Source of the DNA: Kiritimatiellia bacterium
GTDB lineage: Bacteria; Verrucomicrobiota; Kiritimatiellia; RFP12; JAAYLN01
Reading direction: 5' to 3'
Assembly: GCA_017509565.1 (NCBI GenBank)
Contig: JAFWPM010000115.1
Span: 8,401 to 72,400 of the forward strand
DNA length: 64,000 nt
Shown here: in pieces, positions 9,801 to 40,059 of the stretch
How the letters are laid out: each line of letters starts with the position of its first letter
How positions within the stretch are numbered: position 1 is the stretch's first letter
Notes under the pieces: generated by a model
The model's database searches: none
What the model was told of the DNA's origin: nothing
Seen by the model: only the letters and a program-made list of their open reading frames with translations
Translations under genes and position numbers: made by a program

Positions 9801-9830
9801 TGTCAATAAATTGTCTGTCCCTTTATGCTC
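9801..9830. repeat. 30-bp dispersed repeat, copy R1 (TGTCAATAAATTGTCTGTCCCTTTATGCTC)
   Basis: Near-identical to the copies at 36184, 36384 and 55430/55458. It sits between the GH42 stop and the dgt start. Confidence 0.6.
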
Positions 9831-33134: not shown

Positions 33135-34568
33135 TCACTCCCTGCCCAGCAGCTTCGCGGCGGGCAGGATAAAATCAAAATATCCGTCGGCCGGGACTGT
33201 CTTGGCAAGATGCCCGTCATAGACAAGTGCCGTCCGTATCGAGGTGTCGGTCATTCTGCGAAGCACCTTGACCTTTTCGGCGACCTCATCAACGATGCCG
33301 CCATCGATCACCCGCCGCCGCTTGATCTCCACGACCATCATCGAGCGCCTCGTCTGAATGAGCAAATCGATCTGGAGGCCCCGGACGGAGGAGCCGGCCT
33401 TTCGCGCGTATGGCGCGGCCGACAGGACTAGCGACGATTCAAGGCCAAGGTGCGGGAACAGGTCGGGGATATGGGACAGGATTAGGTTTTCAAACTGGAA
33501 ACCGAGCAGCGATTCCCATCCTGGCAGCTGCTCTAGTGACGAAAAGCGGAACAACCCCTCCTCTATGGCAGTCCTCCTCGGCTCGATGGCGTGAAGGTAG
33601 AACCTGGCGTAATTGTCGCTTATGCGGTAGCGTTCAAGCCGGAGCGGCTTGCCCGTCATCGGATTCAATCCGCTTTCCCTTGCGGCGAAGCCCGCCAGCC
33701 GGAGGTCTTTCAACGCCTGCGTGATTGCCCCGTTGGGGACTGTTTTCATGATGGCGGCCAGCTGGGAGGCGGATTTCGGGCCGTCGGCCAAAAGCCGCAA
33801 AACGCGGCCGCGGCTTTCCGTCCGGCGTCCAAGCACGGCGGAGAAAACGTCGTCGAACTCCCTGAAAAGAAGCGCACGGGGCAGGAAACACATTCGGCGT
33901 ATGTTCTCGTCGGCGGAAAGCTGCGGCTTGATTTCCTCGAGATACTTCGGGACGCCGCCGGTAACCGAAAACAAATCGAACAGCTCCCCGGATGACAGCC
34001 TTTCCGCATTCGGACCCAGCATCTTTACGGAATCGGCCAGTGACAGTTCCTTTATCGCCAGGTCAAGGGAATCGCGCCCGACGAACCCCGTATTGTCGAG
34101 TATGTTCTCCGCAATCCACGAGGAAACGCTGCCACACAGGACGAAAATCAGATTGGGGTGCTTCCTGAGACGCTTGTCCCACGCCTCCTTGAAATACCCG
34201 GGGAAATCGGGGCAGTGGCCGCCAAGCCAGGAAATCTCGTCAAGAAGCACAACCGTCCTTGCGTCATTGGGGATGATGCCGTCCAGCTGGGCGAAGGCCA
34301 ATGACCAATTCGAGGCCGACTGGCTATCTCTTTTCGCGTATTCGGCTATTCGTTCGCAGAAATGGCGCCGCTGGTCGGCGTCGGTCACCCCTTTTCTTGG
34401 GGGCAGGCCTTCGATGGCGATGAAAAACTCGGCCGTCCTTGCCGCGAACTCCTCGATCAGCGTGCTCTTGCCTATGCGTCGCCGTCCCCGGCATGTGACC
34501 AGGACGCCGGAATCGCGTCCCCACAAGGCTTCCAGCGCACTCAATTCATCGTCTCTTCCGACAAACAT
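33135..34568 (-). CDS. archaeal-type ATPase (Arch_ATPase/PF01637-like) with C-terminal DUF234 domain
   Basis: MFVGRDDELSALEALW...GRRRIGKSTLIEEF (Walker A) ... VLLDEISW (Walker B) ... C-terminal MMVVEIKRRR...DEV. Somewhat lower GC, and an AT-rich upstream region. Confidence 0.8.
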   Translation of the reverse strand: MFVGRDDELSALEALWGRDSGVLVTCRGRRRIGKSTLIEEFAARTAEFFIAIEGLPPRKGVTDADQRRHFCERIAEYAKRDSQSASNWSLAFAQLDGIIPNDARTVVLLDEISWLGGHCPDFPGYFKEAWDKRLRKHPNLIFVLCGSVSSWIAENILDNTGFVGRDSLDLAIKELSLADSVKMLGPNAERLSSGELFDLFSVTGGVPKYLEEIKPQLSADENIRRMCFLPRALLFREFDDVFSAVLGRRTESRGRVLRLLADGPKSASQLAAIMKTVPNGAITQALKDLRLAGFAARESGLNPMTGKPLRLERYRISDNYARFYLHAIEPRRTAIEEGLFRFSSLEQLPGWESLLGFQFENLILSHIPDLFPHLGLESSLVLSAAPYARKAGSSVRGLQIDLLIQTRRSMMVVEIKRRRVIDGGIVDEVAEKVKVLRRMTDTSIRTALVYDGHLAKTVPADGYFDFILPAAKLLGRE

Positions 34569-34637
34569 CCGTATCTCCTTATTCGCAAATAACGCCAGAG
34601 ATTATACCATGCGGGCGCATTTCTTGCAAATAAAATC

Positions 34638-34736
34638 ATATCTGCTAATTTCGATTTTTACAATTAGCAGATATGAAAAAGGCAAAATATACGCTGAAAT
34701 ATTTCTGCTAAAAAACTTTTTGCATTTAGCAGATAC
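34638..34736. promoter_or_regulatory. two palindromic operator-like sites with half-site TCTGCTAA, in the AT-rich region upstream of the DUF234 ATPase gene
   Basis: 34638-34674 is ATATCTGCTAATT-11nt-AATTAGCAGATAT (perfect 13-bp arms). 34701-34736 is ATTTCTGCTAAA-12nt-TTTAGCAGATAC. Confidence 0.4.
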
Positions 34737-34794
34737 TTTCATCGCTTGAAACCCGCAAAATGCCGCCCTGCTGTCGGCGCTTGGCCTGCCCAAT

Positions 34795-36057
34795 TCACGG
34801 ATGCCAGTTGCGCTTGCGCCACTCGCCCATGGACATCCCGGTGCGTTTTTTGAAGAGCCAGTGCAGCGCGATGTGGGAGCGGAACCCGCAGAAGTCGGCA
34901 ATGGCGCCAATGGGTGTGTCCGTGCGGGAGAGGAGCGTGAAGACCTTTTCGAGTCTGACGTGCAGGATCTCCTTCAGCGCCGAATGCCCCACGGCCTCGC
35001 GGAAGCGAAGGTCGAAGAGCGGACGCGAGCAGCGGAAGCGCTGCGCGAGTTTAGCGACCGTGAGTCCCTCGCAGGCCTCGCGTCGTATGGTCTCCATGGC
35101 TTCCAGGACGAACGGTTCACGCCGCCCGAAACCGCCTGTCGATTCCCGCCGCACGGCAAGCAAAGGCTTGACGAGAATTTCCGCGCCCCGAGTCTCGATG
35201 GAGGTTTTTTTGACAGGATTTAAAAGATTGACAGAATTTTTGTCAGCCACAGAGGACACAGAGTTCACATAGCCTTTGTGCTTCTTTGTGTTCTTTGTGG
35301 CTAAAACATCCCCAATGGCCTTTGCCGCCAGATACCCGGCCAGTTCGTGGTCGATCTGAATGCTGGAAAGCGTCGGGTGTGATGCCTCGCAGAGCACCGG
35401 GTTGCTGTCCACGCCGAGCAGCGTCAGGTCGCGCGGGATGGAGCGGTGGCAGCTCCTGGCCGCGGCGGCGGTTTCCACCGCTGCAAGATCCCCCACCGCA
35501 AAAATGGCGGTGTGGTGCGGAAGGGCGGCGAGCCACCGCGCAAGTCGCGCCTCGCGGAGCTCCTTCGCCTCGTTGCGCCATGGAAGGCGGGAAAACGGCT
35601 TGCCGGACGCGGCGGCAAGCGCGGCGAAGGCCCGCTCGCGCCGGAGCGACCAGCCCCTCCTTCCCGTCGGCCAGGCGAACGGCACTACCGCAAACGCCTC
35701 GGGCAAACCGGCGGAGAGCTCCCGGAAGGCCGCTTCGGCGATGGCCGCGTCGTCGTAGCCCACCCGTACGCCGCGCCCGCCGTAAAGGGTGGGTTCCGCA
35801 TGCATGTAGACAACCGGCACCTCGCCAAAGAGCCTCGGCGGAAGGTCGCGGCGGCCGCAGGAGCAGTCCACGACGCATCCGGCCACGGGCTTGTGCGCGG
35901 CCAGCAGATCGTGGATGGCGTCCGGACGCGACTTTTCTGGCGGCACGACAACAACGTTCCATCGCAGGCTGTCTGCGCATCGCCGCATTCCGGCAAGACT
36001 CGCCGCCTGCATGCGTCCACCCATGCTGGCATCAAGATAGAGTATTGTCGCGCTCAC
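34795..36057 (-). CDS. XylR-type regulator (PBP-I sugar-binding domain plus AraC HTH) carrying an in-frame RPE-like insertion
   Basis: PBP-like N-terminal (ILYLDASMGG...AIFAVGDLAAV...LLGVDSN). C-terminal AraC HTH (LAQRFRCSRPLFDLRFREAVGHSALK). A low-complexity insert ATKNTKKHKGYVNSVSSVADKNSVNLLNPVKKTSI is encoded by repeat E2. Probable GTG start at 36055-36057. Confidence 0.75.
   Translation of the reverse strand: MSATILYLDASMGGRMQAASLAGMRRCADSLRWNVVVVPPEKSRPDAIHDLLAAHKPVAGCVVDCSCGRRDLPPRLFGEVPVVYMHAEPTLYGGRGVRVGYDDAAIAEAAFRELSAGLPEAFAVVPFAWPTGRRGWSLRRERAFAALAAASGKPFSRLPWRNEAKELREARLARWLAALPHHTAIFAVGDLAAVETAAAARSCHRSIPRDLTLLGVDSNPVLCEASHPTLSSIQIDHELAGYLAAKAIGDVLATKNTKKHKGYVNSVSSVADKNSVNLLNPVKKTSIETRGAEILVKPLLAVRRESTGGFGRREPFVLEAMETIRREACEGLTVAKLAQRFRCSRPLFDLRFREAVGHSALKEILHVRLEKVFTLLSRTDTPIGAIADFCGFRSHIALHWLFKKRTGMSMGEWRKRNWHP
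35199..35303. repeat. palindromic RPE-like element, copy E2, in-frame inside the regulator gene (105 nt, 35 codons)
   Basis: Hairpin core GCCACAGAGGACACAGAG-TTCACATAGC-CTTTGTGCTTCTTTGTGTTCTTTGTGGC (35246-35301). It is preceded by TTTTTTTGACAGGATTTAAAAGATTGACAGAATTTTTGTCA, which shares motifs with the island-flank arrays. Confidence 0.7.
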
Positions 36058-36183: not shown

Positions 36184-36213
36184 TGTCAATAGATTGTGTG
36201 TCCCTTTATGCAC
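36184..36213. repeat. 30-bp dispersed repeat, copy R2 (TGTCAATAGATTGTGTGTCCCTTTATGCAC)
   Basis: Identical to R3, in direct orientation 200 bp away. Confidence 0.7.
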
Positions 36214-36269
36214 TGCCTGACTTATTTCTCATTTGGAATCTCTGGGCGCAGGAGTTTTGGACAGGATTT

Positions 36270-36330
36270 TGACAGAATTGGCAGGATTTTTTGGAACAGC
36301 AATCCTGTGAATCCTGTCAAACCCCCACAC
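36270..36330. repeat. array of GACAGGATT / TGACAGAATT / AATCCTGTC motifs (left flank of the AT-rich island)
   Basis: GGACAGGATTTTGACAGAATTGGCAGGATTTTTTGGAACAGCAATCCTGTGAATCCTGTCAAAC, with nested inverted symmetry. It is related to 38826-38895 and to the left part of E2. Confidence 0.55.
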
Positions 36331-36383
36331 GTCTCGATAGAATGCCTGTGCCCCAACTCTCTATGCCACACGGAAGTTCTCGT

Positions 36384-36413
36384 TGTCAATAGATTGTGTG
36401 TCCCTTTATGCAC
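36384..36413. repeat. 30-bp dispersed repeat, copy R3
   Basis: TGTCAATAGATTGTGTGTCCCTTTATGCAC. Its reverse complement supplies the codons ..KGHTIY-stop of the truncated transposase ORF. Confidence 0.7.
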
Positions 36414-36562
36414 ACTTCACAGCACTCAGGGCATACCGCCGCCTTCTTCGCGTATTCGACGAAGATGTCAACACGCCTCCCCTCCACGTCGAGTTCAACT
36501 TTTGAAACCTCACATTCCTCGCCAACACCAAGCAGAACCGAATAATGCTCGTTCACATCCAT
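36386..36562 (-). mobile_element. ISL3-family transposase, N-terminal zinc-finger fragment (58 aa, truncated at repeat R3)
   Basis: MDVNEHYSVLLGVGEECEVSKVELDVEGRRVDIFVEYAKKAAVCPECCEVCIKGHTIY matches the ISL3 zf N-terminus pattern (LLGL..V..VE......I.V......CP.CG......G). The remaining ~350 aa are absent. Confidence 0.5.
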
Positions 36563-36867
36563 GACTTCATTACCTCTTCCTCTCTATCATAGCATTTCCA
36601 AGCCTCTTTTGCCGTCACCTCTGGCACTAACTTTGGCCTCCCTTCCACAAAAAAATTGGAAGAACCATGAATATAGGCATTAGTTGGCCAATTTGCTCCA
36701 GGACAATATGTTGTTGGGGTAGATGTAAGCATGGAATCTATCTGCCTGGCAATGCCATCAACATCAATTTCACCATTGAAGCACCTTATTCTAAAACCTG
36801 CGTTACCGCGCGAGAAATACAATGATGCCCCAACATGCTTTGCTGCTTCTGCAGAAATGTTTTGCAC
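36553..36867 (-). CDS. hypothetical protein (AT-rich island)
   Basis: 104-aa ORF in AT-rich DNA with no recognisable motif. Its stop overlaps the start of the transposase fragment. Confidence 0.35.
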   Translation of the reverse strand: MQNISAEAAKHVGASLYFSRGNAGFRIRCFNGEIDVDGIARQIDSMLTSTPTTYCPGANWPTNAYIHGSSNFFVEGRPKLVPEVTAKEAWKCYDREEEVMKSWM

Positions 36868-37002
36868 AAGGCAGAAATCCCCTATTCCAACGTATGCCTT
36901 ATATAATGGATAGCAGAGCGTCTATTGGCGCTGAACACATTACTAAATCTTTCAGTAGAGCATATCTTGCTTTTTCCGCATCTTTTGCGAATAAGATGCT
37001 AA

Positions 37003-37308
37003 TTACAGCGTTTTTTCAGTGCCTTTAATGTGTAAATCCTCAACAATGCAAATATCTTTGCCGTCTTCAAGAGGTGAAAAATCGGCATCAGGGAAAAGAG
37101 TCAAAAGCTTTTGGATAATATCTTCCTTTGTGAAATAATCGCACGGATCGTCAAACCTAAAGCTTGCTCTTACGCAATAGTAATCAACCCTCCGCATCAA
37201 CACTTCGTCCATATTACTAGTCCTAAAACCCACCGCTTCAGAAGAAATGCTTGTGGTGGGGCTAAACATAAGTAAAAGAATTGAGGAAATGCTTGGTATA
37301 TATTTCAT
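37003..37308 (-). CDS. hypothetical small secreted protein (AT-rich island)
   Basis: Start MKYIPSISSILLLMFSPTTSISSEA (signal-peptide-like). About 100 aa, AT-rich codons. Confidence 0.4.
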   Translation of the reverse strand: MKYIPSISSILLLMFSPTTSISSEAVGFRTSNMDEVLMRRVDYYCVRASFRFDDPCDYFTKEDIIQKLLTLFPDADFSPLEDGKDICIVEDLHIKGTEKTL

Positions 37309-37325
37309 GGATCGCTCCTCCAAAA

Positions 37326-38645
37326 TCACCTTAAATAGACAAGCGGCACTATACAAATGTCTTCAACGTCGCCAGCATGCGCGGCTTCGGGGCTTGTTGA
37401 TACATCTATGGCTTCTGCAAGGTATAATTCGAGGCTTTCCCCCAAGCATGGACCAGCACAAGCATCGAAAATTATTCCGTTGCATAAGGCAAAAGCATGA
37501 TTGCCAAAGGGAACGCGTAATGGCAAGATTAAGTCTGGATCTACATTTGGGCTGGTGCCATTGCTCATGTAGAATGGATTATTACACAACCCTACGCCCA
37601 CTAAGTTTAACGAGTTTATATACCCAAATGGCGTCATATACAAAAAATACGCTTCAAGCCCTAATGCTGTCGCAAGTGAAACAACTCCGCTTGCTTGATC
37701 ATAACAATTGACGACACTTCCACTTGTTTTTCCAATGTATTCCGATAAGGAAAAGACAGCAGCAGCTGTTGCCGTATAATATAATGGACTGCCGCTTGTG
37801 GTATCATATGTTAACCCATGCCCACTATGCAAATATTGGGTGATTTCCTTCATGGAATTGAAGTCGTTTTTACCAGAGCACCCAGCTGTTTCTATAGCGA
37901 ATGACAAAGCACTGACCCAAGGGTTCTGTGAACTGTTTGCCGTCTGAGTCCATGGCGCTTTGGGATAATCCCAGAGCGTATAAATCACATGGCCGGAAGT
38001 ATGGTCACTAACAAGCCCAAGGGACGACACGTTTAGGCCATCAACTTCACTAAAGCCCCACGTCCATGAATCAACGGATTTGAAAACCGTTGAAGGCGTT
38101 TGCCCCGCTAGTTCAAATTCAACAAATTCGCTGTTTCCTCCTGTAGGCGATGTGCTTTGCGAAACACCGCTAGCAAATGCGACAGACCTTTCCAGAGCAT
38201 CACCCAACGAGCCATTGTCATCATCAGACAGTCCATATATTTTCGCCGAAGATATGGATGACGGGGCTATCGAGAATGAGACCTTGATTTTGGCTACAGT
38301 ATTTCTGATATAGGCAACCGGGTAATTCGACATATCCCTGACATATTCCGGAAGTGGCAAATTTTCGTCATATGCCATCCTTATGTTCAGGGCATCATCA
38401 ATTGCGGAGTCTTGTTTGTAGTTGAACCATATTTTTCTGACTTCAATTTTTACCGCAGTCAACTTCACCTTATCGGAACATTTGAAAATGTCTTTGTTTT
38501 CGCCATCAACATTCTCGTCATATTCAAGGTTCAGCTCGATATCGCGCATTGCGGCGCTTGGAGCGACGCCCTCGACGTAGAGAGTCCCTGGCATCGCCGA
38601 CACCGTGTCCCACGTCTTCGGCAACGTTACTTCATGCGTCCTGCC
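37326..38645 (-). CDS. hypothetical protein, about 440 aa, Cys/His-rich C-terminal region (AT-rich island)
   Basis: Long ORF with AT-rich codon usage. The first ~40 codons lie in GC-rich DNA. Motifs include AGCSGKNDF...YLHSGHG...CNGIIFDACAGPC (possibly peptidase-like, unassigned). The start is uncertain (MGRTHEVT or downstream). Confidence 0.45.
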   Translation of the reverse strand, partial: GRTHEVTLPKTWDTVSAMPGTLYVEGVAPSAAMRDIELNLEYDENVDGENKDIFKCSDKVKLTAVKIEVRKIWFNYKQDSAIDDALNIRMAYDENLPLPEYVRDMSNYPVAYIRNTVAKIKVSFSIAPSSISSAKIYGLSDDDNGSLGDALERSVAFASGVSQSTSPTGGNSEFVEFELAGQTPSTVFKSVDSWTWGFSEVDGLNVSSLGLVSDHTSGHVIYTLWDYPKAPWTQTANSSQNPWVSALSFAIETAGCSGKNDFNSMKEITQYLHSGHGLTYDTTSGSPLYYTATAAAVFSLSEYIGKTSGSVVNCYDQASGVVSLATALGLEAYFLYMTPFGYINSLNLVGVGLCNNPFYMSNGTSPNVDPDLILPLRVPFGNHAFALCNGIIFDACAGPCLGESLELYLAEAIDVSTSPEAAHAGDVEDICIVPLVYLR

Positions 38646-38825
38646 CATGTCCGCCCAGACCTTTATCCGCGAGCCGCCGATTAAGGGGCCGCGGCGTCTG
38701 CCATGCCGGCAGGCGCCGCAAGAGCGACAAACCAATGTTTGAAAGCAGTCATGCGCGAGACTCCCTCCGCAGGGTTTTCAGTCGCCGCCTATTCTACCAG
38801 AACAAAGCCCGCCATGCAAGGGGAC

Positions 38826-38895
38826 GGAGGTTGTCAGGACAGGATTAACAGGATGGACAGGATTCTAGAGACCACAATCTTGTTAATCCTGTCAA
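38826..38895. repeat. array of GACAGGATT-type motifs (right flank of the AT-rich island)
   Basis: TGTCAGGACAGGATTAACAGGATGGACAGGATTCTAGAGACCACAATCTTGTTAATCCTGTCAAAAAAA. A 12-bp perfect inverted repeat GACAGGATTAAC / GTTAATCCTGTC. It ends AATCCTGTCAAA like the left flank. Confidence 0.55.
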
Positions 38896-39056
38896 AAAAA
38901 GGCGACATTTGACATTCGACAGCCGACAACCCAGCCGACATTCGACCTTCCGGCCTTTAAACCTTTGACGGGTCGTTCTTAACGAAACCCTGCACGTTCC
39001 ACGCGGTTGGGATTTGCGGCATCGCCATGCCCGCTACGCACCGGTGGCTTGGACCG

Positions 39057-39674
39057 CTAATATCCCAAATCCTCGTCCACCAGCACAACAAGCATCGGCG
39101 TCGGCCTGGGCCGCCTGTCAAGGACAACAGTCACATTGCAAATCCTGTCCGGCGACGAGCAGTCAGCGCATTCGCCCGTCGCGGCGCAGGGGGTCTTCCT
39201 GCCAAGCCTGCGGCAGTTCGGGGGGCAGGCCTCACGCTTTATGCGCGCGATGGCCTCTTCAACGCCCCCTTCGACAATCTTGTTGCGCCCGACGACGAAC
39301 ACCACTCGCCTCGGCCCGAATATCGAAGCGGCCACGCGGTTCCCGTTGCCGTCGATGTTCACAATCACCCCGTCCGCCGTGAGCGCGTTCGCGCTCAGCA
39401 AAAACAGGTCGCAGCCAAGTTCGCCTCGCATCGTCTCGAGCTTGCGCTCCGCCGGGAGCTCGGGGTCGCCGTGCCAGAACAACGTCTTGCCGGCCGCGCG
39501 GGCCATGGCCTGTATGCCCAGCCCGCCTATAGTCATGGAGCCTCCGAAGCCCACGCTTCCGGCCTTGGCGAGCTCCTGCCTCACGGCGTCGGCCGCTTCG
39601 GCCGATGTCCGGCACACCCGCGTTTCGAAACCGCGCCTGGCCAGCGCCGCCGCCACATCATTCAGCCGCGCCAT
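39057..39674 (-). CDS. LUD-domain protein (LutC/YkgG-like)
   Basis: GFGGSMTIGGLGI ... LLSANALTADGVIVNIDGNGNRV fits the LUD (DUF162) fold signature. The start is chosen at MARLNDV. Confidence 0.55.
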   Translation of the reverse strand: MARLNDVAAALARRGFETRVCRTSAEAADAVRQELAKAGSVGFGGSMTIGGLGIQAMARAAGKTLFWHGDPELPAERKLETMRGELGCDLFLLSANALTADGVIVNIDGNGNRVAASIFGPRRVVFVVGRNKIVEGGVEEAIARIKREACPPNCRRLGRKTPCAATGECADCSSPDRICNVTVVLDRRPRPTPMLVVLVDEDLGY

Positions 39675-40059
39675 CGCCCGCCTCCATGTCGCCGTCGCCG
39701 GGGATTTCGCCCGCATCCTCCATCTTCGAGAGTATGTCGAGGACATGGTCGCCCCTTTCAAGCGACTCGTCAAGCGTAAAATTCAAAACCGGCGTGTATT
39801 TCATGCGGATGTCGCGATTCACCAGCCGCTGGAACTCCTGCCTGCGGGCCTTGACCTGCGAGAGAATGTGCGCCCGGTCCTTCGCCGGGCTGAATACCGA
39901 TATCGCCACATTGGCGTTCCTCAGGTTGCTGGCCACGCTCACGCGCGTCACCGTTATCGCCGCGACATTGACCCCCGAGCCGGCCATTACCACCGGCACG
40001 GCCTCCGCGATTTCCCTGCGTATCAGGCTGTTGAGCCTCTCGATTCTGTCCACTGCCAT
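39658..40059 (-). CDS. rbfA: ribosome-binding factor A
   Basis: MAVDRIERLNSLIRREIAEAV....ITVTRVSVASNLRNANVAISVF is the RbfA KH-domain signature. About 133 aa from MAVDR. Confidence 0.75.
   Translation of the reverse strand: MAVDRIERLNSLIRREIAEAVPVVMAGSGVNVAAITVTRVSVASNLRNANVAISVFSPAKDRAHILSQVKARRQEFQRLVNRDIRMKYTPVLNFTLDESLERGDHVLDILSKMEDAGEIPGDGDMEAGDGAAE

Follow-up and report, generated by a model that had tools for sequence, protein, structure and literature searches.

A segment of low G+C content (GC) at about positions 36,660-38,540 of a 64,000-nucleotide stretch of Kiritimatiellia bacterium contig JAFWPM010000115.1 (the whole stretch is called the window below) probably represents the horizontally acquired C-terminus of a polymorphic toxin together with an immunity-like gene, in a copy that is probably decaying; we put the probability of this reading at roughly 0.7. 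We propose that the segment would contain the variable C-terminal end of the toxin and its cognate immunity-like gene, gained together by horizontal transfer and joined to a resident 5' region of host-like GC through a recombination event within a conserved pre-toxin module. The toxin would be exported by way of its Sec signal peptide, its C-terminal unit of ~390 residues would act as a thiol enzyme and damage a protein or peptide of competing cells, and a partner of ~196 residues, exported to the same compartment, would bind and neutralise it. The 3' end of the partner gene would later have received an insertion sequence of the ISL3 family, which would in turn have been truncated, and the hairpin arrays found nearby would happen to occupy adjacent intergenic spaces. 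The coordinates of all features are collected in Table 1.

Predicted fold and conserved residues of the large protein

The sequence-only reading of this stretch, made without database searches, had described a protein of about 440 residues with Cys/His-rich blocks, and the main open reading frame (ORF) of the segment indeed holds all three of them (AGCSGKNDF, YLHSGHG and CNGIIFDACAGPC). Its product is a 100% match to IKH04_04965, a hypothetical protein of a Kiritimatiellae metagenome-assembled genome (MAG). Scans of the three ORFs of the segment against Pfam (E ≤ 0.1; including Transglut_core and its relatives), NCBIfam and PADLOC gave zero matches. The first homologue search with the large ORF returned 43 homologues, and 36 of these were aligned. 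In this alignment H391 and D402 are invariant and C322 is present in at least 90% of the sequences, so that the order along the chain is Cys-His-Asp, and the motifs NCYDQA, GNHAF and (F/L)DACAGP are conserved across the family.

The AlphaFold model calculated from the alignment of 36 homologues (mean predicted local distance difference test score 84.7, predicted TM-score 0.82) is confident over residues 67-447 of the construct and consists of a beta-sandwich followed by an alpha/beta core. The first 50 of 50 Foldseek matches were animal-type transglutaminases, and the structural neighbours of the model also include LapG and TglA as well as bacterial transglutaminase-like proteases. A profile search with the family against the PDB sequences returned nothing at E ≤ 10. 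The sequence-only reading had proposed a structure prediction to look for a peptidase or transglutaminase-like triad, and the outcome is positive at the level of the fold and of residue conservation: as modelled, the large protein has a transglutaminase-like fold with conserved Cys, His and Asp residues. The model suggests that the toxin unit is a thiol enzyme, which could be a protease, a protein deamidase or a transglutaminase.

A family with the architecture of polymorphic toxins

A profile search of 1.84 billion representative proteins yielded 2,772 members of the family at E ≤ 1e-3, 659 of them at E ≤ 1e-30. In all but a few of the best 150 of the 2,772 matches, which are 228-1775 residues long, the ~390-residue unit is C-terminal. 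What precedes it differs between homologues, which carry PAAR-like heads, signal peptides or lipoprotein-like starts. Homologues P0020 and P0025 have N-terminal Tox-PAAR-like domains (PF13665), and P0025 is located within a cluster of VgrG, DUF6484, DUF2169, PAAR-like and TsiV genes; the Burkholderia homologue P0028 is encoded directly 3' of a VgrG gene, with DUF4123, Tle1-like and VasX genes around it. Conversely, the N-terminal region of the window protein is found in front of other C-termini. Residues 19-99, which form the shared pre-toxin module, recur twice in P0032 (58% and 42% identity), a protein with an unrelated C-terminus, and the module is also present in P0040, which ends in DUF7689. 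An N-terminal region shared by proteins with alternative C-termini, as seen in P0032 and P0040, is characteristic of polymorphic toxins, and these shared heads with alternative tails, combined with the fusions to secretion adaptors, support the reading as a toxin. When the window was searched for another copy of the pre-toxin module, the sole match was one of 13 residues due to chance, and no description of the toxin family turned up in a literature search. Judged by these architectures, the family can be described as one that is used as an effector of type VI secretion (T6SS) in Proteobacteria and is Sec-exported in Kiritimatiellia, Verrucomicrobiota and Lentisphaerota.

Several of the homologous cassettes are GC-poorer than their flanks. 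An IS3-type element ends 46 nt upstream of P0005 (L207 3786-6056), a homologue that is truncated at its N-terminus, and at locus L208 (7352-10167) two consecutive partner-sized genes are followed by an IS66 fragment; decay and association with insertion sequences are therefore common for this family of cassettes. Genes for ISL3, rve and integrase proteins are present at locus L003. At the loci of P0022 and P0024 a conserved gene of ~255 residues also precedes the toxin gene.

A partner gene downstream of the toxin

In nine of nine other loci a gene of 177-294 residues lies directly 3' of the toxin homologue (L001, L002, L003/L004, L207, L208 with two such genes, L209, L210 and L211 were examined), which is the position of the small cognate gene of a polymorphic toxin. 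The partners of L001-L003 form one aligned family with 16 database members, and several of the later partners share motifs with it by eye.

In the window, two small ORFs on the minus strand occupy this position, and both had been noted by the sequence-only reading as a secreted ORF of ~100 residues and an ORF of 104 residues. The former (37003..37356) has 117 codons, or 101 from an internal ATG at 37308, and by eye its N-terminus resembles a signal peptide; in the latter (36553..36867), the C-terminal third is read-through into the ISL3 inverted repeat. A window fragment matched the L003 partner with a BLASTP E value of 6e-9, the partner profile matched two window fragments with E ~1e-5 each (in a small local set), and the joined fragments aligned with the partner family in hhalign with a probability of 97.5 (E 8.6e-12). 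When the 101-residue ORF is joined to the front of the two fragments, residues 99-199 of the reconstructed partner correspond to family positions 93-195, a length in keeping with one gene of ~196 residues. The simplest reading of these alignments is that the '117-aa' and '104-aa' ORFs are one partner gene split by two frameshifts. Instead of the three unknown genes counted earlier, the segment would then most simply hold two, the toxin gene and the split partner gene, both of which appear frameshifted. A homology search with the 101-residue ORF returned only itself. A likeness of this ORF to the partner family around 'DICIVE' was considered and was not significant.

The leaders of the partners, judged by eye, differ between loci. 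The two T6SS-linked partners have none, those of Verrucomicrobiota, Lentisphaerota and Kiritimatiellae have signal peptides, and a leader of the lipoprotein type occurs in those of the lipoprotein-like toxins P0022 and P0024. The type of leader thus tracks the export route of the toxin, which supports cognate pairing. The earlier suggestion that the gene order resembles a toxin-immunity or effector cassette is supported by the transglutaminase-type model, the conserved Cys, His and Asp residues, the homologues linked to PAAR-like domains and VgrG, and the presence of a partner in all nine other loci.

Several of the same observations would also suit a secreted transglutaminase-like enzyme that serves the cell's own surface or nutrition, as a protease or cross-linker in surface remodelling, adhesion or protein degradation. 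The window protein has a signal peptide instead of a marker of a secretion system, its N-terminal modules are immunoglobulin (Ig)-like and thus of a kind typical of surface proteins, two of its structural neighbours, LapG and TglA, are non-toxins, and P0022 and P0024 look lipoprotein-like by eye and have no T6SS genes nearby. By analogy with the staphostatins that accompany staphopains, the partner could then be an inhibitor or chaperone that guards against premature activity. We regard such an enzyme as distinctly improbable, because the toxin domain also occurs in PAAR-like fusions and VgrG clusters, the N-terminal modules are common to proteins with unrelated C-termini, truncated orphan copies beside insertion sequences are common, and strict pairing with a small partner is a hallmark of polymorphic toxins (PMC3482391).

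The compositional break lies inside the toxin gene

The GC of the DNA between ~36,450 and ~38,540 is 0.37-0.50, compared with 0.644 for the whole window and 0.60-0.72 for the flanks. At third codon positions the GC (GC3) is 0.37-0.41 in the ORFs of the segment and 0.70-0.81 in the flanking genes (the AraC-type regulator gene, the LUD-domain gene and rbfA). The sharp drop reported by the sequence-only reading is thus real, but its right edge is not at the repeat array (array C, ~300 nt away); it lies near 38,540, inside the large ORF. The GC3 of this ORF is 0.70-0.80 in codons 1-60 and 0.25-0.55 from codon 61 on, and the host-like composition extends upstream from the break through the signal peptide and the promoter region. 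A GC break inside the shared module, with host-like DNA upstream of it, is the pattern that replacement of a C-terminal toxin-plus-immunity cassette would leave behind if it took place by recombination within that module.

Frame breaks and the state of the copy

The short ORF that encodes the Sec signal-peptide-like sequence occupies the -1 frame with respect to the main toxin ORF, and the two frames meet at GCC CCT TAA after a C4 run (~38681-38690). The long homologues P0002 and P0009 open with similar hydrophobic leaders, and compared with the long homologues the window gene lacks most of the N-terminal modules. Taken together, the out-of-frame signal peptide of the toxin and the two frameshifts of the partner suggest that the cassette in the window is probably a decaying, pseudogenised remnant.

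We also considered that the cassette is intact and functional, with the frame breaks being assembly errors or, alternatively, with a -1 ribosomal slip at CCC-CUU-AA. The toxin ORF of 1.4 kb is uninterrupted despite its AT-rich DNA, all residues of the triad are present, and every break is located at a short low-complexity run. The other genes of the window, many of them with 700-1100 codons, are nevertheless unbroken, which indicates a low rate of indels and argues against assembly errors, and the partner would require two independent corrections. As to a ribosomal slip, a small GC-rich hairpin (38693-38717, minus strand) lies just upstream of the GCC CCT TAA junction and scored 25.7 bits against a viral frameshift element of Rfam, below the gathering score of 40; this match is probably due to chance, and a classical stimulator of -1 frameshifting would be expected on the other side of the junction. 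An intact cassette consequently seems to us unlikely, though less so than an enzyme for the cell's own surface.

Points that weigh against an acquired, decaying toxin cassette

A number of observations do not sit easily with a decaying toxin-immunity cassette. Throughout the family, toxicity, neutralisation and binding are inferred. Given that Pfam, NCBIfam, PADLOC and the PDB sequences all returned no match, the assignment rests on a predicted structure, and the triad is a candidate one, assigned by the conservation and the order of its residues. The predicted fold of the partner is a generic one. The N-terminal 98 residues of the reconstructed partner match nothing in the partner family, so the 101-residue ORF could be a separate orphan gene that lies before a 5'-truncated partner gene. 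Short low-complexity runs (C4, A6 and TATATAA) contain or adjoin all three frameshifts; if these were errors of the assembly, the cassette would be intact. There are no T6SS genes in the window, nor a known outer-membrane delivery route for a Sec-exported toxin. Finally, the LUD-domain gene has its nearest metagenome relatives at ≤75% identity, and these lack synteny with the window and offer no comparable junction; their neighbours are fmt upstream and DhaL-like (by eye) and other genes downstream.

An ISL3-like remnant and 30-bp repeats at the left edge

The sequence-only reading had also recognised an N-terminal fragment of an ISL3 transposase, and an ISL3-like fragment is present as an ORF of 58 residues (36386..36562, minus strand) with an N-terminal transposase pattern, of which ~50 codons are left. 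The matches are weak but specific: in a tblastn search of plasmids (7.3 Gb) the ORF matched ISIde1-type transposases over their first ~45 residues (E 4e-3 to 7e-2). The window ORF and the ISIde1-type proteins have in common the pattern ..LG....V.KVEL.....R.D..VE......CP.C. A Pfam search with the ORF gave no match, and a BLASTP comparison with the more distant ISL3 transposase of locus L003 detected no similarity.

In the window the inverted repeat GGTTCTTCC...GTGGAAGG is found upstream of the ATG at a distance of 98 nt, and ISIde1 has GGCTCTATG...GTGGAAA at ~95 nt; in this comparison with a single element, the ISIde1 counterpart of the window's terminal sequence is GGCTCTATGCCGTTTCCAGTGGAAA, also ~95 nt upstream of the ATG. 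A terminal inverted repeat of the GGCTCT type thus occurs at the distance from the ATG that is expected for ISL3, and the window shares with ISIde1 the form GGYTCT...GTGGAA at ~95-98 nt. Compared with complete ISL3 elements, only ~250 nt are left, with no DDE domain, right end or verifiable target duplication. The left end of the element abuts the partner gene, and on the other side the remnant is cut at 36413/36414, before the end of its zinc-ribbon motif, by the second copy of a 30-bp direct repeat.

This repeat had been missed by the sequence-only reading. Its two identical copies bracket the left hairpin array (array B), and a diverged third copy with 3 mismatches was found at 9802-9830, ~170 nt upstream of an HD-domain gene. 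All three copies have the same orientation. Their minus-strand sequence ends in TTGACA, in copies 1 and 3 at ~130-170 nt upstream of the start of a gene. The repeat may be an operator or a promoter element, the latter considered by eye, or the end of a larger repeat. It was not found in the viral contigs searched.

Hairpin arrays are local copies of a widespread repeat

The sequence-only reading had reported related arrays on both flanks of the segment and took them to be consistent with attachment (att) or terminal sequences. The arrays themselves exist and are related, with AATCCTGTCAAA at 36310-36321 and at 38885-38896, although the ends that had been quoted were off by 3-6 nt. Each array is a hairpin palindrome with three units on its left arm and two on its right arm. 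Array B lies between the 30-bp repeats (DNA fold -13.3 kcal/mol, z -2.4) and array C in the spacer that separates the LUD-domain gene from the toxin gene (DNA fold -13.8 kcal/mol, z -4.6). A third element of the same class (DNA fold -15.3 kcal/mol, z -3.5) is 96 nt long and lies in frame within the gene of the AraC-type regulator, at about residues 252-284. It adds ~32 residues (KNTKKHKGYVNSVSSVADKNSVNLLNPVKKTS) between the sugar-binding-like and helix-turn-helix (HTH) domains; the Pfam domains of the regulator end at residue 261 and resume at residue 337.

The motif TTTGACAGGATTNNNNRGATTG, which matches all three window copies, was found in at least 120 loci of one-genome-per-species data, compared with ~35 expected by rough arithmetic. 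These loci belong to Bacteroidota, Acidobacteriota, Verrucomicrobiota, Kiritimatiellia, Desulfobacterota, Chloroflexota, Planctomycetota and Hydrogenedentota, and to one Methanosarcinales MAG. The four free positions of the motif read (A/T/G)ACA in 93 of the 124 matches listed, so the arms are built of tandem 9-mers; the unit is TT[G/A/T]ACAGGA, with a -35-like TTGACA, and the design includes a T run on the 5' side, an A run on the 3' side and variable loops. An inverted arm was present within 250 nt in 47 of the 124 matches listed (chance expectation 0.009). With regard to a possible dispersed repeat of the REP/MITE kind, the window has three copies, and several other MAGs have from 5 to more than 12; the isolates Spirosoma flavum and Fibrella aquatilis carry the repeats as well. 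Among the matches listed there was no orientation bias relative to genes, and among the 120 hairpin loci listed there was no shared neighbouring gene that could be a transposase. The motif was found once in viral contigs, and a literature search for the repeat sequence strings returned nothing. An intrinsic terminator was considered and rejected for the arrays, which have no U tract and were not called by a terminator scan; the T run precedes the stem.

Many copies of the hairpin are nested in a second palindrome of short tandem repeats, as at 35250-35300. In a rumen metagenome (L125 395-860), a GxxExxY (TIGR04256, PD-(D/E)XK-like) gene lies between the inverted tandem-9-mer arms GCCGCAAAGAACGCAAAGATCACAAAGG and CCTTTGCGATCTTTGCGTTCTTTGCGGC, which have the same style as the outer palindrome at 35250-35300. 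This locus is a hint that a small nuclease-like ORF can be carried by palindromes of this sort. Three CGACATT(T/C)GAC-like decamers (38903-38947) adjoin array C, between the LUD-domain and toxin genes.

If the DNA from 36.3 to 38.9 kb were a single integrative island, gained in one piece through site-specific recombination or transposition, the GACAGGATT arrays would be its att sites or terminal repeats. The two arrays resemble each other (72-91% over 22-25 nt) and have the same arm polarity, they bracket the toxin gene, the partner gene and the ISL3 remnant, and all exact matches to GACAGGATT in the 64-kb window are confined to 33.4-39.2 kb. Their positions do not match the GC boundaries, however: ~300 nt of DNA with host GC, comprising the promoter, the signal peptide and the first 60 codons, lie between array C and the GC break, so the arrays do not mark a compositional island. 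The third copy is located 1 kb away inside the neighbouring regulator gene, no integrase domain was detected with Pfam and no tRNA gene was found in the window, and the hairpin design recurs in many phyla with no common neighbouring gene and was not found around eight homologous cassettes. An integrative island bounded by the arrays is thus very improbable, and we conclude that the GACAGGATT arrays are local copies of a widespread hairpin repeat, not island ends or att sites. Beyond this, the arrays may represent an undescribed, often nested, cross-phylum class of mobile or recombinogenic hairpins, with the three copies in 3.7 kb marking a hot spot that aided capture of the toxin cassette; we consider this a doubtful possibility. 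As a by-product, the hairpin repeat class is more curious than the cassette and may merit a study of its own.

Table 1. Features of the low-GC segment and its borders (positions are those of the window).
Feature	Position	Strand	Description or basis
Main toxin ORF	37326..38735	minus	469 codons from TTG; NCBI call is 407 residues from M63
Shared pre-toxin module	38439-38681	minus	residues 19-99
Beta-sandwich (predicted)	~37974-38483	minus	
Transglutaminase-like core (predicted)	~37329-37922	minus	
Candidate triad Cys	37704-37706	minus	codon in motif NCYDQA
Candidate triad His	37497-37499	minus	codon in motif GNHAF
Candidate triad Asp	37464-37466	minus	codon in motif FDACAGP
Short ORF MTAFKHWFVALAAPAGMADAAAP-stop, Sec signal-peptide-like (by eye)	38681..38752	minus	three-frame translation
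Partner gene, apparently broken	36724..37308	minus	BLASTP, hhalign and profile matches to fragments
Partner piece 1	37308..37006	minus	signal peptide and N-terminal part ('117-aa ORF')
Partner piece 2	37015..36902	minus	family positions 96-128; frame change near A6 run (~37010)
Partner piece 3	36921..~36724	minus	family positions 136-193, in '104-aa ORF'; frame change near TATATAA (~36905-36920)
ISL3-family left-end remnant	36414..36660	minus	tblastn to ISIde1-type transposase N-termini
ISL3 inverted repeat GGTTCTTCCAATTTTTTTGTGGAAGG	36660-36635		98-nt leader to transposase ATG at 36562
30-bp direct repeat, copy 1	36184-36213	plus	127 nt upstream of AraC-type regulator start
30-bp direct repeat, copy 2, TGTCAATAGATTGTGTGTCCCTTTATGCAC	36384-36413	plus	100% identity, spacing 200 nt
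Hairpin array B	36255..36323		GGACAGGATT-TTGACAGAATT-GGCAGGATT, loop, AATCCTGTG-AATCCTGTCAAA; 86% complementary
Hairpin array C	38838..38895		left arm GACAGGATT-AACAGGAT-GGACAGGATT, right arm ATCTTGTTAATCCTGTC then A7; 94% complementary
Third hairpin-class element	35205..35300		TTTTTTTGACAGGATT..GACAGAATT then palindrome GCCACAGAGGACACAGAG / CTTCTTTGTGTTCTTTGTGGC
AraC/periplasmic-binding-type regulator gene	34795..36057	minus	
LUD-domain gene	39057..39773		

Genomic setting

The surroundings of the segment are ordinary chromosomal genes, among them rbfA and genes for an FHA protein, a PEGA protein, nadA, a MiaB-like radical-SAM enzyme and a glycosidase. A Pfam search of the window protein and 17 neighbouring proteins detected no PAAR, VgrG or Hcp fusions, adaptors or neighbours, such features being confined to homologues from other phyla, and Rfam gave zero matches at gathering thresholds across the window, with chance-level matches alone at E ≤ 5 in the region. 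In PADLOC, an ATPase_2/AAA protein with an HTH domain (33135..34568, minus strand) falls into the candidate defence family PDC-S27 (E 3.5e-69). The GC of this ATPase gene is somewhat lower (0.59), and the spacer at 34500-34800 is AT-rich. The region from 32 to 39 kb may be a variable neighbourhood of defence and competition genes. For this genome the finding is an ordinary one: the cassette is probably decaying, and the variable region around it includes the candidate defence ATPase as well.

Comparison with known systems

With animal-type transglutaminases (TG3, TG2, factor XIII A and band 4.2) the toxin shares only 7-12% identity, the TM-score of ~0.33 indicates a different packing of the domains, and the window protein lacks their C-terminal beta-barrel domains. 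LapG and the bacterial transglutaminase-like cysteine proteases (BTLCP) give no match at the sequence level, and LapG further lacks a beta-sandwich unit, a paired inhibitor gene and a polymorphic architecture. As to the T6SS effectors that travel as cargo of PAAR-like domains (DUF4150/PF13665) and have cognate Tsi-type immunity genes, P0020 and P0025 have the same architecture and a small gene downstream, and P0028 follows VgrG. The window protein differs from these in having no PAAR-like domain or T6SS neighbours and in carrying a signal peptide and Ig-like modules, and its partner has a signal peptide by eye, whereas the T6SS-linked partners have none.

Toxin domains with the transglutaminase fold (Tox-TGase) are already part of the catalogue of polymorphic toxins (Zhang, de Souza, Anantharaman, Iyer and Aravind 2012, PMC3482391). 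The window family resembles them in placing a variable C-terminal thiol-enzyme domain, as predicted here, behind shared N-terminal trafficking modules. As in polymorphic toxins generally, an immunity-like gene follows directly downstream, the delivery heads vary between a signal peptide, a PAAR-like domain and a neighbourhood with VgrG, insertion sequences adjoin orphan or truncated copies, and the GC break fits cassette replacement. The family appears to differ from the Tox-TGase class in that no Pfam or NCBIfam model detects the window domain, and its conserved unit of ~390 residues includes an N-terminal beta-sandwich and is thus more than the core alone.

These comparisons provide a structural and contextual assignment for a large family that has no Pfam or NCBIfam model, and they give annotators a handle on a transglutaminase-fold toxin unit with a dedicated partner, of which intact pairs exist, for example P0002 (toxin unit at residues ~355-745) with P0044, or P0025 with the gene at L001 7629-8162. 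The cassette itself, a polymorphic toxin with an immunity gene, is of an ordinary kind, with a toxin family for which there is no curated model.

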